Of a stretch of 64,000 bases of DNA, positions 5,234 through 9,073 are shown one piece after another; positions within the stretch are counted from its first letter, which is position 1, and every line of letters starts with the position of its first letter. The translations under genes were made by a program, and so were the position numbers. The DNA lies in the NCBI GenBank assembly GCA_965217585.1, contig OZ244561.1, forward strand, positions 2,368,001 through 2,432,000, read 5' to 3'. The stretch is from Candidatus Latescibacterota bacterium (GTDB lineage: Bacteria > Latescibacterota > UBA2968 > UBA8231). The notes under the pieces are model-generated. The model was given only the letters and a program-made list of their open reading frames with translations. It did not search any database and had not been told where the DNA came from.

Positions 5234-5256
5234 ATAAAAAGCGACGCATGCGTCGC
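5234..5256 (-). terminator. Intrinsic terminator closing the ECF sigma / mini-RNAP operon
   Basis: Immediately after the TAG, a perfect palindrome GCGACG-CATG-CGTCGC followed by TTTTTAT on the minus strand. Confidence 0.8.
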
Positions 5257-5258
5257 CC

Positions 5259-8200
5259 CTAGGCCGGCAGCCCTGCAAAGAGCCGGCTGAACAGGCTGGT
5301 CAAGGGCTCGGTCTCGCCGCGCTCGGCCGCCCTAGCAAAGACTACGCCCGGCTGCGCCGCCCTAGCGGCCCGGCCCAAAATGTGGTAATCGGCCCGGCTA
5401 GGCCGCTGGGCCGCTTCCCGCGCCTCGGTCCAGCCCTGGTTGGTGGCGGCCAAACCCCATAGGGCACGCGGTGCCCGCACCTTGGCCTCCTCCACCGACA
5501 GGCCGTCGCGCCAACAACCGCGCTGAGCGAATAGACTACCATCTTCCCGATAGATCAGCCCGCCGCCCACGTATTGGATCAACTGCTGTTGGTTGCCCCG
5601 CGCCCCCGACAGCGCTAACAGGGCTAGGGGCCCCAAGTCGTTGTCGTCGAAATCGGCCTGCTGGTGGAAAGCCGCCACTAATTCGTCGCTGTACATTTGC
5701 CACTCGTCCCAATCGATCTCTGCGGGCTGCTCGGGCCACTCCTTGCCCGAACCGAGGAAGGGGTTGAAGGAGGCTCCAGACTGCTTGCAGACCTCAAAAC
5801 CGCGCCGCGTCAGTCGGTCGAGTACCTCCAGCGCTCGCTCCAAACCCTCGCGCTGCAGCACCTGGACTAGCAAGCGGTTGAGATCGCGCTTGGCGAACAG
5901 CCGGCTGCCATCCACGGCCACTCCGATCAGCCCCTCCACTTCAGCGCGACCTTCCTCCGTGCGGCACAGCCGCGCCAAACCCCATATCATGCCGTGGTAG
6001 TTGTCGGCCACGTAGCGCCATACATCCGCATCGCGCTGTATGTGTCCGGCCACCGACAGCGCGGTCTCGGCTTCGGCCTGGGCTTCCTCAGTGAGGGGCA
6101 AAAACACCTCTATCTGATCGCCATCGAAATCTAGCTCCATCAGTCGGCAAACGCGCGGATGGACGCGCACTGCGGCCCCGGCCAAACGCTGCGGACGAAA
6201 GGCCACCATCGCGGTGGGCGGCACGTGGAACACCGGGCCGTGGCCCTCGTCCACCAGCACCCGCTGGGCGCTGTATAGCAGCACCCACGAGCGTGCCATG
6301 ATCGCGTCCAGAACCTCAGCCGCTCGGGCCGAACGCCGCGCCACTTCCTCGGCGCGATCCATCTCCCGCTCTACCTGAGGCGCGAACAAAGCCCAGGCCA
6401 TTTCCTCGGGCAGGCCCACTTGGTCGAGATTCAACTCAAAACCCGAGGCAAGCGCGGCCCGGCCGCTAAACAGCGGCCTAGCCCGGAAGTGGAGGTGCTC
6501 CGGGCGCAACAACGCAGAAAAAAGATCCTCCACCCGTTGGGCCACCTGGGCCACCGCCGGTCTGACTAGGGCCTCGGGCGCTTCGCTATCGACGATGCGC
6601 TGCAAGCGCGTATTGGCTTCGACCAAATCCTCGAAGCAGCCTCGGATTGGGTCGAACTCGGTCCCCACTGGCAAAGCAACGGGGGATCCCACCGTCCCCA
6701 CTTGGCGTCCTGGGGCCCACGGATGTGGCACTGGGCGGGCCAAGGTCAGCCCCTCGGACTCGGCGAAGGAAAAGCGCAACTCCGCGCTCGCCAACTCGGC
6801 CCGTATCCCGGCCATACCCAGTAGCTGCTGCAACAAGGCAAAGCGCGGGGACGGGGGCGGGGACGGGGATACCGGACCGGTGGCCAAGCACTGGCCCAGC
6901 GCATTGGCGTCGGGCCGCTCGGCCGCGGCCGTGTTGAACAAAGCGTGGATATTGGCTACGGCCCCGGCCTCGCGCAAAGCACCGTAGGCCATCATGTCGA
7001 TTTCCGGTCCGCCGGCTCCTGCCACCGCGGTTTCCAAGCGCTCGGCCGCGGTGTGGGTCAGGCGGCCCCAGTACACCCAACCCACAGTACTGCGATAAGG
7101 CAGCTCCTCGCCTTTGAGGGTCAGTTGCTCCATGCCGTCTTCGGGCAGTCCCGCCTCGACTAGACGCGCTTTCAACATCTCTTCACTGGGTGCCTGAAAA
7201 GGTGGCACCACCGCCGGGTGCCCGGCGGCCTGGGCGAGGCGACCCATGACCGCCTCGCGCTGCTGGCCGAAATTGAGCCGCGAGACCATACTGGTGGGAC
7301 TGAAGATGAGTTCTATCGGCGCACCATCGGGCAACTGCGGCATGTCGGCGTCGGGCAGGATGCGCGTCACCACCCCTTTGGCACCGTGGCGGTTGCTCAT
7401 GCGGTCGCCCACCCCCACTGCGGCGGGAAAATCCATCCGCGCCGCGGCCGACTCGCTAATGACTAAGCCATCCTCAAACGTGTCCCCATCCCACATGATG
7501 AAGGCGGTCAACAGATTGTAGCCACCCCAAAAGTCGACGGCCCCAGGCTCGTATCCCGTCTGCACTAGGGCCGGCTCGGGTTTGTGGCCCTTGGAGGCCA
7601 AGCGTTGGTCGTACTGCTGGCGGAACCAACCCGTGGAGTGGATCGGTGCCGCTGTATCGGCTGCGCTCGTCCACTGGCGCATCATATTGATGCCCATCAG
7701 GGCGCGATTGGTATCGTCGTGTTCGAGAAAGGGCACCATGGAGGCCGAAAAACCCAAGATGCTGTCGGGCGCTTTGTCGATTCGTTCGAGCTTGCCGTCG
7801 CGGATGCGGGCACCGCGGGCCACTTCCAGCACTCGGCCGATATTGGGCCCTTCGGGGGTGCAGTAGGGGCACACTAGGCCGTATTGGCTGTAGGAGAAAA
7901 CGTCTTGGTCGTCAAAAGGCTCGACGACGACGGGGATCAAAGTCAGCCGCCGCAGATGGGTATAGCGGTCCAGCCAGTTGGTCGCCTGTAGATACTGCGA
8001 AGTTTCCTCCAAGTGGAAGTCGCGCAGCCAGGCGTCCAGCGGCAGCCAGTTGCGCACCAAGTCGCCATCCCAAGCCAACTGCTCGGGGGCCGCCTCCAAC
8101 CTTTGGTCAATAAAGTCGTAGAGCTGCTCGCCCACGCACAGAATCCGCGCTTGGTCGAGTTCGCGCCGGTCGGGATAGGGGACCACGACCCGGTAGTTGC

Positions 8201-8432
8201 CTTCAATGTGGAAAAGGCCATCGCGGTCGGGCCGAGGCAAATCCCGGTACTCAACCTCGACCGAGGCATCGCCGAGTCCCAAGCTCAGTTTAATGGAAAA
8301 AGTATAAGAGTCCTGTTGTTCGACTTGATAGTCGGCCAGCGGCAAGCGCTCGCCCAAAAGCCGGGGCAGTCGCTGGTGGACGAAAAGGTCAAAAGATTCC
8401 CTATGCCAAGGTACGTCGAGATTCAATGTCAT
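5259..8432 (-). CDS. Miniaturised single-chain RNA polymerase beta-beta' (RpoB-RpoC)-like fusion protein, 1057 aa
   Basis: Colinear RpoB motifs: GLFHIEGNYRVVV, SQYLQATNWLDRYTHLRRL, YGLVCPYCTPEGPNIG, ASMVPFLEHDDTNRALMGINMMRQ, WDGDTFEDGLVISE, GDRMSNRHGAKG, SRLNFGQ, YWGRLTH. These are followed by RpoC motifs: LARPVPHPW, ANTRLQRIVDSEAPE, FSGR...VGLPEEMAWALF, HPRVC..ELDFDGDQ, SGARG, WRDGLS..GLAAT, AAERGETEPL. Confidence 0.93.
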   Translation of the reverse strand: MTLNLDVPWHRESFDLFVHQRLPRLLGERLPLADYQVEQQDSYTFSIKLSLGLGDASVEVEYRDLPRPDRDGLFHIEGNYRVVVPYPDRRELDQARILCVGEQLYDFIDQRLEAAPEQLAWDGDLVRNWLPLDAWLRDFHLEETSQYLQATNWLDRYTHLRRLTLIPVVVEPFDDQDVFSYSQYGLVCPYCTPEGPNIGRVLEVARGARIRDGKLERIDKAPDSILGFSASMVPFLEHDDTNRALMGINMMRQWTSAADTAAPIHSTGWFRQQYDQRLASKGHKPEPALVQTGYEPGAVDFWGGYNLLTAFIMWDGDTFEDGLVISESAAARMDFPAAVGVGDRMSNRHGAKGVVTRILPDADMPQLPDGAPIELIFSPTSMVSRLNFGQQREAVMGRLAQAAGHPAVVPPFQAPSEEMLKARLVEAGLPEDGMEQLTLKGEELPYRSTVGWVYWGRLTHTAAERLETAVAGAGGPEIDMMAYGALREAGAVANIHALFNTAAAERPDANALGQCLATGPVSPSPPPSPRFALLQQLLGMAGIRAELASAELRFSFAESEGLTLARPVPHPWAPGRQVGTVGSPVALPVGTEFDPIRGCFEDLVEANTRLQRIVDSEAPEALVRPAVAQVAQRVEDLFSALLRPEHLHFRARPLFSGRAALASGFELNLDQVGLPEEMAWALFAPQVEREMDRAEEVARRSARAAEVLDAIMARSWVLLYSAQRVLVDEGHGPVFHVPPTAMVAFRPQRLAGAAVRVHPRVCRLMELDFDGDQIEVFLPLTEEAQAEAETALSVAGHIQRDADVWRYVADNYHGMIWGLARLCRTEEGRAEVEGLIGVAVDGSRLFAKRDLNRLLVQVLQREGLERALEVLDRLTRRGFEVCKQSGASFNPFLGSGKEWPEQPAEIDWDEWQMYSDELVAAFHQQADFDDNDLGPLALLALSGARGNQQQLIQYVGGGLIYREDGSLFAQRGCWRDGLSVEEAKVRAPRALWGLAATNQGWTEAREAAQRPSRADYHILGRAARAAQPGVVFARAAERGETEPLTSLFSRLFAGLPA

Positions 8433-9028
8433 TGATGTTCCTCCGGGTTATGGATAGCCTGCCAAGCCTGTGAGAGCTGGCGGCGGCCGTGGTGCAGACG
8501 CGACTTTACGGTGCCTTCGGGAATGCCCAGTCGCTCGGCGGCGTCCCGCACCTCGACTTGGGCGTCGTAGATCAGACGGAAAACCTCGCGCTTGTCCTCG
8601 GACAACTCTTGTACCTGTCGCCGCAGCCAGCGCTGCTGGTCAGCCCACTCCACTTGGGCGTCGGGGCGCTCAGACGCGGCCTCAATCATCCATTCGGGCA
8701 CTTGCTGCGTTTCCTGCTCCACGGTTTCAGACAGCATTTCCAGCCGCTGCTCCCGCCGCCGCCGCACAGTGCGCAGGTGCGTCAGGGAAAGATGAGTAGC
8801 AATGCGGAACAGCCAAGCAGCCACAGACCCTCGACCACTCCATTGGCCAGCCCGGTTCCACACCCGCAAGAAAACCTCTTGTACTACATCGTTAGCACTC
8901 GCATCGTCGCGGACGATGCAGCGCACGTGATGGTGGATCTGCTCCCGATAGCGCTCAAAGAACTGCTGGAACGCGCATGCGTCGCGTTCTTTTATTTGCG
9001 CTATAAGTTGTGGATCCGGTATCTGCAT
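8429..9028 (-). CDS. ECF (group IV) RNA polymerase sigma factor
   Basis: 199 aa with region 2 (ANDVVQEVFLRVW...AWLFRIATH) and region 4 HTH (AAERLGIPEGTVKSRLHHGR). Its stop overlaps the next gene's start (ATGA). Confidence 0.95.
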   Translation of the reverse strand: MQIPDPQLIAQIKERDACAFQQFFERYREQIHHHVRCIVRDDASANDVVQEVFLRVWNRAGQWSGRGSVAAWLFRIATHLSLTHLRTVRRRREQRLEMLSETVEQETQQVPEWMIEAASERPDAQVEWADQQRWLRRQVQELSEDKREVFRLIYDAQVEVRDAAERLGIPEGTVKSRLHHGRRQLSQAWQAIHNPEEHQ

Positions 9029-9045
9029 CGAGGCCTCTGCAGATA

Positions 9046-9073
9046 AAGACGCCGCCCGGAAAGTACAGGTTCA
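9046..9073 (-). promoter_or_regulatory. ECF-type (probably autoregulatory) promoter TGAACC-N16-CGTCTT
   Basis: Minus strand TGAACC tgtactttccgggcgg CGTCTT lies about 18 nt upstream of the sigma ATG. It matches the AAC(-35)/CGT(-10) ECF consensus with a 16-nt spacer. Confidence 0.7.

Follow-up and report, generated by a model that had tools for sequence, protein, structure and literature searches.

By the usual view, bacteria possess a single multisubunit RNA polymerase (RNAP), which is reprogrammed by sigma factors. The closest architectural precedent for the protein described here comes from a eukaryote: Orf6 of pGKl2, a cytoplasmic killer plasmid of yeast, is a 982-residue Rpb2::Rpb1 fusion, as described in the available part of PMC2919709. 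We analysed a 64,000-nucleotide stretch from a Candidatus Latescibacterota bacterium (assembly GCA_965217585.1, contig OZ244561.1, positions 2,368,001 to 2,432,000 of the forward strand; hereafter the window, with positions counted from its first letter). It contains a two-gene cassette in which an extracytoplasmic function (ECF) sigma factor is paired with a 1057-residue chain that joins a reduced β to a reduced β′, here called the mini-polymerase. We tentatively read this cassette as an autoregulated accessory polymerase, a single chain with two barrels, that would use its own ECF sigma factor.

Set side by side by description, Orf6 and the mini-polymerase have much in common (available part of PMC2919709). 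Both are single chains of about 1000 residues with the Rpb2/β part first and about half of each parent deleted, and both keep the two barrels, the bridge helix, the fork and switch 3, with no detectable trigger loop. They differ in that Orf6 is eukaryotic, borne on a linear plasmid, of Rpb-type ancestry and without a sigma factor, whereas the mini-polymerase is bacterial and chromosomal. A further difference concerns the flap, an SBHM (sandwich-barrel hybrid motif) insert that the β barrels of the killer-plasmid enzymes keep, according to the available part of PMC7824862, and that the mini-polymerase family has lost. Orf6 had been overlooked in an earlier interpretation of the window that was made without database searches (hereafter the sequence-only reading).

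A second point of comparison is YonO of the Bacillus prophage SPβ. YonO-like proteins are linked to phages or prophages and are very distant from cellular polymerases, to which a bipartite motif of about 60 residues is their sole similarity (available part of PMC2919709). Like the mini-polymerase, YonO is a single-chain two-barrel protein of about 100 kDa with no flap insert and no standard accessory subunits. Going by these descriptions, the mini-polymerase is unlike YonO in that it matches the Pfam and NCBIfam models of β and β′, retains clamp helices and lies on the chromosome beside a sigma partner.

Full-length fusions of β and β′ are also on record as NCBIfam models PRK09603 and PRK14844, which we take to be the Helicobacter and Wolbachia fusions. 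These too carry β and then β′ in one polypeptide. Their models span about 2840–2890 positions and the fusion is the cell's only polymerase, whereas the mini-polymerase has about 37% of that length and occurs alongside a normal rpoBC. It scores 157 and 147 bits on the two models, against cut-offs of 5372 and 4632. Extra full-length paralogues of rpoB or rpoC, as far as the available parts of PMC5431353 and PMC4679880 describe them, differ from it in size and role.

As a gene pair, the cassette resembles ECF sigma/anti-sigma pairs in having a two-domain sigma factor, an apparently autoregulated promoter and a downstream gene that would be co-transcribed and translationally coupled, but the downstream partner is a polymerase homologue and not a protein with an anti-sigma domain. 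A term search of the main text of an ECF re-classification (PMC7826278; its supplements lie outside the search) found no mention of RpoB, RpoC or Rpb neighbours. Nor did we find a miniature β–β′ fusion linked to a sigma factor described in the full-text literature, with subscription journals and supplements outside its reach, so that a prior mention is possible. Within the two-barrel polymerase class, the mini-polymerase has a sigma partnership that appears unprecedented.

Architecture of the mini-polymerase

The ECF sigma gene (8429..9028, 199 residues) is followed directly by the mini-polymerase gene (5259..8432; residues 1 to ~560 β-like and ~561 to 1057 β′-like). Both lie on the reverse strand, as do all other cassette features given below. 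The genes overlap as ATGA at 8432–8429, and a GGAGG at 8444–8440 stands 8 nucleotides ahead of the mini-polymerase ATG. The upstream protein has the domains Sigma70_r2 (PF04542) and Sigma70_r4_2 (PF08281), that is, sigma regions 2 and 4 only. It scores 101.8 bits on the sigma70-ECF model TIGR02937 (cut-off 42.9) and thereby passes the family model of ECF (group 4) sigma factors.

The mini-polymerase shows three colinear Pfam matches: RNA_pol_Rpb2_3 at residues 146–210 (E 6.5e-07), Rpb2_6 at 340–467 (3.7e-32) and Rpb1_2 at 741–792 (8.9e-13). These are the only domains listed at E ≤ 1, with no anti-sigma domain among them. Among NCBIfam models, the highest scores come from bacterial rpoB, at 167 bits (cut-off 801), and bacterial rpoC, at 93 bits (cut-off 964), and bacterial models outscore archaeal ones (167 against 109 bits). 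As its scores lie far under the rpoB and rpoC cut-offs, the mini-polymerase is a relative of these subunits and not an orthologue. The sequence-only reading, which had seen RpoB and then RpoC motifs running colinearly through a 1057-residue open reading frame (ORF), a DFDGD at residues 768–772 (nucleotides 6117–6131) and an ATGA overlap with an upstream ECF sigma gene, is borne out by the domain matches and the coordinates.

That reading had also called for confirmation of a separate, canonical rpoBC in the genome, and there is one. The cassette is chromosomal, in a 7.3-Mb genome made up of a single contig, and canonical rpoB (1814 bits) adjoins rpoC (1773 bits) at C1:5399359–5407142, about 3 Mb from the window. 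Unlike the canonical core, therefore, the mini-polymerase is not the sole copy and does not stand in an rplL-rpoBC context.

To see which parts of the canonical subunits are retained, a family profile of 30 members was aligned to the same genome's own RpoB and RpoC. The profile matches RpoB residues 431–538 (the fork), 605–665, 747–781 and 1034–1266, colinearly, and RpoC residues 268–485 (clamp helices, switch 2 and the DFDGD barrel) and 563–779 (through the bridge helix). The chain thus retains the fork, the two barrels, switch 2, a bridge helix and clamp helices of the sigma-binding type. Most of the β N-terminal lobes are gone, about 25 residues are gone at the position of the rudder, and beyond the bridge helix nearly everything is gone save a short C-terminal motif, the chain ending about 50 residues after that helix. 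The β flap (canonical β 782–1033) has no counterpart: a link of about 20 residues joins the barrel halves where the canonical subunit carries about 250. The sequence-only reading had missed this deletion, which removes the usual dock of sigma region 4.

The motifs shared with bacterial RpoB and RpoC are ETPEGPN, PFLEHDDxNRxLMGxNMxRQ, EDG, GD(K/R)xSNRHGxKG, the clamp motif NxRL..AP, the SGR of switch 2, DFDGDQ and the bridge helix. The differences are that the mini-polymerase is one chain, without flap or β′ 1–267, with a shortened rudder region and with no linked α or ω. Measured from stop to stop, RpoB and RpoC of this genome have open frames of 1271 and 1366 residues, compared with 1057 residues for the mini-polymerase. 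The profile mapping and the one-piece structural model described next support the view, already put forward from the sequence, that the mini-polymerase is an accessory paralogue of β + β′, reduced along domain boundaries to about 40% of the two together.

An AlphaFold2 model built from a 30-row alignment had a mean predicted local distance difference test (pLDDT) of 90.9 and a predicted template modelling score (pTM) of 0.88, the sole poorly predicted stretch being residues 725–734. Its best Foldseek matches in the PDB were RNAP β and β′ chains. In VIA-align superpositions on Rpb2/β, model residues 1–505 gave Z 30.4 with 4ayb_B (root mean square deviation (rmsd) 2.7 Å over 488 residues) and Z 28.7 with 5vi5_C (rmsd 2.5 Å over 499 residues). 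A model without two juxtaposed barrels had been named beforehand as an outcome that would speak against a polymerase core. Nothing in the prediction points that way, the high pTM suggesting that the two barrels are juxtaposed.

Two helical elements of the model have counterparts in canonical β′. Residues 591–641 (6510..6662) form a coiled coil of helices H591–615 and H620–641, the counterpart of the β′ element that binds sigma region 2. Its motif EAN-x-RL...AP is invariant or nearly so, and N607, R609, L610 and P619 are invariant in a family-specific sub-alignment (A2). The bridge helix (5409..5495) is a 29-residue helix, H980–1008, in the model. It also falls in the profile alignment to canonical β′ 563–779, which in this region takes in the SGARG...ARxGLA motifs.

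Active-site residues

Three features of a two-barrel core are present: a β′-type barrel with the DxDxD signature, a β-type barrel with an ED pair and two basic residues, and a bridge helix. In the window protein, the β-type barrel motifs (7377..7475) are FEDG (E320, D321) and GDRMSNRHGAKG (R344, K352), and the metal-binding Asp triad of the β′-type barrel (6117..6131) is D768, D770 and D772.

We counted these residues over 92 family members that were non-redundant at 70% identity. R348 is present in all 92, the residues of NRxLMGxNMxRQ in 89–91, D321 in 87, and K352 and the full Asp triad each in 85. Position 344 is K in 82 members and R in 8. Conservation is lower at two further sites, with R-x-P before the barrel in 73/92, and N, D or E as the residue preceding A-DFDGD in 52/92, 22/92 and 12/92, respectively.

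Eight residues are invariant in all two-barrel polymerases, according to the available part of PMC2919709; we placed them by mapping to yeast numbering, inferred from motifs. The window protein has five of them unchanged, one conservative change (K to R) and two missing (the R and P of N-R-x-P). The loss of these two in the window's clade had not been noticed in the sequence-only reading. Judged by these residues, the family as a whole looks catalytic, with the window's own copy less certain. Other members, such as P0099 and P0118, have both N-R-A-P and N-A-DFDGD.

One member (P0125) is otherwise full length but has GFSAQ in place of DFDGD. From its sequence, it may be naturally inactive and could be useful for separating catalytic from scaffold roles.

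Distribution and selection

The mini-polymerase belongs to a sizeable family, with hundreds of sequences and, by source labels, several phyla. A word-indexed search scored 533 relatives, and the 120 listed were mostly 1000–1075 residues long with 43–94% identity and 100% coverage. All 120 are named 'hypothetical protein' by their sources, and the labels given to their metagenome-assembled genomes are Latescibacteria, Gemmatimonadota, Hydrogenedentes, Poribacteria and Chloroflexi. When 1.84 billion representatives were searched exhaustively, 380 reached E ≤ 1e-30, including many full-length clusters of 945–1101 residues; among the 150 listed, no family-level match was longer than 1101 residues. 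Identity within the full-length relatives reaches down to about 40%.

The gene is patchily distributed. It is carried by 66 of the 168 genomes of the phylum and absent from 102. Within the genus, 21 of the 30 genomes besides the window's own carry it, as do 2 of 301 in a sample of another phylum. Roughly 20 of the genomes with the cassette are single contigs. One genome (G071) has two copies, at C1:1427408–1431177 and 3367761–3371731, each with its own upstream sigma gene.

Among 19 genus-level orthologues (171 pairs), the ratio of non-synonymous to synonymous substitution rates (dN/dS) had a median of 0.16 and a range of 0.13–0.21, and all eight segments tested separately fell between 0.12 and 0.23. 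Thus the mini-polymerase is a gene family maintained by purifying selection and not a decaying one. The sequence-only reading had argued for selection from the long intact frame, and had held that dN/dS near 1 would count against it. It had also suggested a search for homologues of about 1000–1100 residues and a test of conserved ECF adjacency, which was seen in 27 of 30 loci in the phylum and 52 of 65 metagenome loci (see below).

These data bear directly on the possibility that the gene is a functionless duplicate of rpoBC in decay, or an assembly chimera. The patchiness of the gene (66/168 genomes in the phylum, 21/30 in the genus) and the existence of broken copies (L101, L105 and L106) would fit such an origin. 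It is contradicted, however, by the homologue searches, in which hundreds of intact ORFs across numerous assemblies and phyla showed the same architecture, by the dN/dS of 0.16 and by the confidently predicted fold, and we consider it extremely improbable. Contigs from a public DNA run also match stretches of the cassette region with 0 differences, which speaks against the read-level misassembly that had been raised as a danger. The exact match is not independent support, however, as the source sample itself may be what that run represents.

In a quick tree of the β C-terminal region, the 30 mini-polymerase sequences were separated from 70 canonical β sequences by a long branch (Shimodaira–Hasegawa-like approximate likelihood ratio test (SH-aLRT) 100). 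The 70 references were loci from a contig scan with full-length alignment; all 80 loci kept from that scan were ordinary rpoBC, which share the LMGxNMxRQ pattern. As the tree has no outgroup and many long branches, no donor lineage can be named. The mini-polymerase evolves faster than the canonical subunits and is dispensable. The latter follows from close relatives in which the cassette has decayed: in one the C-terminus of sigma alone remains (L105, genome G143), in another a deletion takes most of sigma and the first 92 mini-polymerase codons (L106, G146), and in a third sigma is frameshifted (L101, G141).

We also looked for the family in mobile elements. In tblastn searches, 50,697 phage records and 72,556 plasmid records gave canonical rpoBC-like matches only, and nowhere was 80% or more of the query covered. 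A scan of viral contigs, limited to two peptide patterns, found no member. PADLOC gave no match for the mini-polymerase, and its PHROGs matches were to full-size β/β′-like families only.

Some representatives are shorter, of about 750 residues starting near residue 290 or of about 250 residues covering residues 1–250. These may be split forms, or fragments from contig ends. In the ESM Atlas there are, in addition, other clusters with Rpb2_6 and Rpb1_2 in one chain of 1221–1787 residues, one of them labelled inorganic-pyrophosphatase. As leads only, they hint at a wider range of compact fused polymerases beyond this family.

Linkage to the sigma factor

A sigma homologue lies directly upstream of the mini-polymerase in 27 of 30 loci from the phylum. 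Two of the remaining loci keep remnants (L105 and L106) and the third has none within the locus (L116). In L116 the position of sigma is taken by a gene for an ABC exporter on the same strand (ABC_membrane + ABC_tran; 4621–6075, reverse strand), and that genome's sigma gene lies about 2 kb farther upstream. A gap of about 1.9 kb between the two cassette genes is seen in one lineage (L116 and the genus g31 genomes G073, G075, G077, G084, G087, G089 and G090), and the L116 exporter fills the part of it within the locus, about 1.5 kb.

The linkage extends beyond the phylum's genomes. With the family-specific sub-alignment we found 80 metagenome loci, 65 of which have enough upstream DNA to assess. 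An adjacent upstream sigma gene is present in 52 of the 65 (49 by rule and, where ORF starts were over-extended, 3 by inspection), and one further locus has sigma fragments about 0.9 kb upstream. Sigma, present in 52 loci, is the sole conserved neighbour; the two clusters that rank after it consist of ORFs lying over the cassette in antisense. The clamp-helix motif is kept in every metagenome locus in which that region was recovered.

The two genes also occur together. A search of the phylum with the sigma protein (E ≤ 1e-40) found it in 62 of the 168 genomes, giving 61 genomes with both genes, 5 with the polymerase only, 1 with sigma only and 101 with neither. The five polymerase-only genomes comprise two contig ends or fragments, two with decayed sigma genes and one complete genome, and the sigma-only case is at a contig end. 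As these genomes are related and not independent, the counts do not amount to a statistical test. In the genomes compared, the sigma gene is upstream, on the contig and strand of the polymerase gene, mostly abutting it but 0.26–2.4 kb off in 14. Together, these observations support a conserved sigma linkage of the mini-polymerase.

The 27 cassette sigmas form a coherent group in alignment A3, with 39–55% identity and a shared linker motif, VPxWMID..LGPD. The motif falls at about residues 108–125 of the window's sigma (~8654–8707), between its sigma2 and sigma4 domains. The linkers of ECF sigma factors are usually variable. From its conservation, this one may contact the mini-polymerase.

Whether the two proteins would bind each other was examined by complex prediction, which the sequence-only reading had suggested alongside a model of the protein alone. 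The single chain was predicted confidently, as described above. Residues 284–1057 together with sigma gave a score of 0.46, where the best of 3 controls gave 0.01. Of 80 solved complexes, 58 attained that mark, as did 2 of 110 mismatched pairs, with only 7 of the 80 solved complexes but both of the passing mismatches at 0.60 or under; as custom alignments were used here, these counts are a rough guide. The prediction runs share at least 28% of their contacts, with a partner pLDDT of 65 or more. As sigma/β′ complexes have already been solved, the pass may reflect likeness to known structures. The prediction thus lends weak support to sigma binding the mini-polymerase.

Putative promoter and terminator of the cassette

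The ECF-type promoter that had been picked out ahead of the pair (9048..9073) has a −35 element TGAACC at 9073–9068, a 14-nucleotide spacer and a −10 element GGCGTC at 9053–9048, and lies 20 nucleotides before the sigma ATG. Of 27 loci, 26 have the pattern TGAAC[CT]-N14-15-GG[CTA]GTC upstream of sigma, including L108–L115, which have unrelated flanks. In the 27th (L101) sigma is frameshifted and the examined window was misplaced. The motif recurs even in loci whose mini-polymerases are just 45–55% identical. As it is kept where its surroundings have diverged, it is more than a chance match, and this argues for autoregulation of the cassette promoter by the sigma factor.

A scan of the 7.3-Mb genome with TGAAC[CT]-N13-15-GG[CTA]GTC gave 19 matches against about 16 expected by hand estimate, which is near the chance level; most of them are inside long ORFs, and the cassette's own site is the only convincing one. 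The single plausible match besides it (C1:6906621–6906595, reverse strand; TGAACT...CCGGGCGGAGTC) lies 22 nucleotides before a 163-residue ORF, which is followed by a gene for a TPR protein. We rejected this site as a regulon member, as it is indistinguishable from chance and the 163-residue ORF is uninformative.

At the other end of the cassette, immediately downstream of the stop codon, a terminator-like hairpin (5232..5257) consists of a stem at 5256–5241, then TTTTTATT, with a T-run at 5240–5236. The hairpin and T-run that the sequence-only reading described are therefore present, but the fold is not exceptionally strong: at −12 kcal/mol (z −1.66), it is equalled by 14 of 200 shuffles, and a scan for consensus terminators did not list it. 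A terminator here is plausible but unexceptional.

A possible sigma-directed minimal polymerase and its alternatives

How might such a cassette work? In the reading that we tentatively prefer, the sigma factor, acting first via the host polymerase, would recognise TGAACC-N14-GGCGTC and raise expression of both genes. Both proteins would then accumulate, translationally coupled through the ATGA overlap, and sigma region 2 would dock on the clamp helices of the mini-polymerase. The stripped-down core, with its two barrels, fork, switch 2, bridge helix and Asp triad, would in this way gain promoter-specific initiation, which would proceed without α, ω, flap, jaw or trigger loop. It is more doubtful that the 1057-residue chain and the 199-residue ECF sigma make up a complete orthogonal transcription system, and with it the smallest promoter-specific RNA polymerase of the cellular type. 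As such a system would be without flap, zinc-binding domain, α, ω and trigger loop, its sigma would need to be anchored by some new means.

If the preferred reading is true, free-living bacteria would have a second, minimal transcription machine. The family would also be a natural experiment on which parts of β and β′ catalysis and sigma-directed initiation cannot do without, and a possible use would be as a compact two-gene module for orthogonal expression.

A number of observations weigh against this reading. Some of them concern the way in which sigma would be held and used. Residues 1–267 of β′ are gone, a region whose elements we take to be the zinc-binding, zipper and lid elements. No trigger loop or jaw was recognised, an absence by non-detection, as the profile alignment stops near β′ 779. 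With both the flap, where sigma region 4 docks, and the β′ N-terminus gone, the holding of a two-domain sigma at the −35/−10 spacing is left unexplained. Complex prediction speaks only weakly for binding. The conserved promoter is compatible with either polymerase as its user, and the motif scan of the 7.3-Mb genome found no regulon beyond the cassette's own promoter. Finally, 12 of the 65 assessable metagenome loci have no adjacent sigma, and the clamp-helix motif is kept in 10 of these 12, where the region was recovered. As sigma-less loci keep the motif too, this comparison does not discriminate between the hypotheses.

The same observations raise the possibility that sigma serves the host core only, and that the mini-polymerase is a sigma-independent effector polymerase like YonO, for particular templates, for priming or for back-up synthesis when the host enzyme is blocked. 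We consider this rather unlikely, although it would account for a promoter whose architecture and spacing are those of an ordinary ECF promoter, a layout that relies, in known holoenzymes, on the flap lost here, and for the motif scan having given no promoter but the cassette's own. The 12 loci without adjacent sigma keep the catalytic motifs wherever these were recovered. YonO itself provides a model, as a single-chain two-barrel protein that is a DNA-dependent RNA polymerase without the standard subunits (available part of PMC5467207). What a sigma-independent effector leaves unexplained is why the sigma-binding clamp helices rank among the best conserved parts, why the two genes co-occur nearly one to one (61 genomes with both; 5 and 1 with one; 101 with neither) and why both copies in G071 come with a sigma gene of their own. 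The complex prediction, in addition, is weakly supportive and not nil.

Further points against a sigma-directed polymerase come from the active site. In the window's clade, the N-R-A-P-T before the barrel has become Y-S-A-Q with an insertion of about 11 residues, in a derived segment (residues 715–734; 6231..6290) from which R and P are lost. The DFDGD is preceded by E-L in place of the usual N-A, with E where N is commonest, and GDR stands for GDK, so that the first barrel lysine is R344. Across the 92 members, 19 have no R-x-P and 7 do not have the full Asp triad, one of them reading GFSAQ. As the ribose-sensing R and N positions are replaced in the window's clade, its substrate (sugar) selectivity may be altered.

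A relaxed nucleoside triphosphate site (R-x-P lost, N to E) in the window's clade and the few members without the triad would also suit a protein that no longer polymerises. Such a non-catalytic mimic of RNAP could sequester the sigma factor on its copied clamp helices, or act as a decoy for molecules that target RNAP. Anti-sigma genes usually sit directly downstream of ECF sigma genes, and this is the position of the mini-polymerase gene, which is also translationally coupled to the sigma gene; no anti-sigma gene is conserved nearby, and the clamp helices are retained. A trap for sigma would not, however, need some 1000 residues with fork, both barrels, switch 2 and bridge helix. Neither would it be expected to keep the triad in 85 of 92 members, or the barrel lysines, ED pair and NRxLMGxNMxRQ each in about 85–92 of 92, and dN/dS is uniformly low over all segments. 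With no anti-sigma domain in Pfam besides, a mimic seems to us unlikely. If the mini-polymerase were nevertheless a silent mimic that holds its sigma, it would be a new class of sigma regulator.

Neighbouring genes and other observations

RNA-library contigs from three runs in two studies match parts of both cassette genes, and one of them spans 8216–8658, across the sigma/polymerase junction. At 90–95% identity, they derive from relatives. They are no proof of transcription, of single transcripts or of transcript ends, and empty bins are uninformative.

In the annotated flanks of the cassette (~2.8–12.6 kb of the 64-kb window) there are no ribosomal, rpoA or phage genes, in agreement with the sequence-only reading, which had noted the absence of rpl/rps, rpoA and phage neighbours. 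Apart from one for a secreted CHU_C/F5_F8 protein, the genes there are metabolic, encoding a PhyH dioxygenase, an AstE/AspA-like enzyme and a DUF4332 protein. The secreted protein is encoded just past the terminator (2828–5194, reverse strand; 788 residues) and has an F5/8 type C domain and a CHU_C/FlgD_ig C-terminal sorting domain of the type IX secretion type. As its gene stands beside the cassette in just 4 of 30 related loci, it is probably unrelated to the cassette.

Upstream of the sigma promoter, a divergent intergenic region (9123–9254) contains two 25-nucleotide direct repeats, 9184–9208 and 9230–9254, that are 84% alike. In the DNA run, the summed contig depth over 9123–9254 is about 850, compared to 27–120 elsewhere, which points to a short repeated element common in the community.

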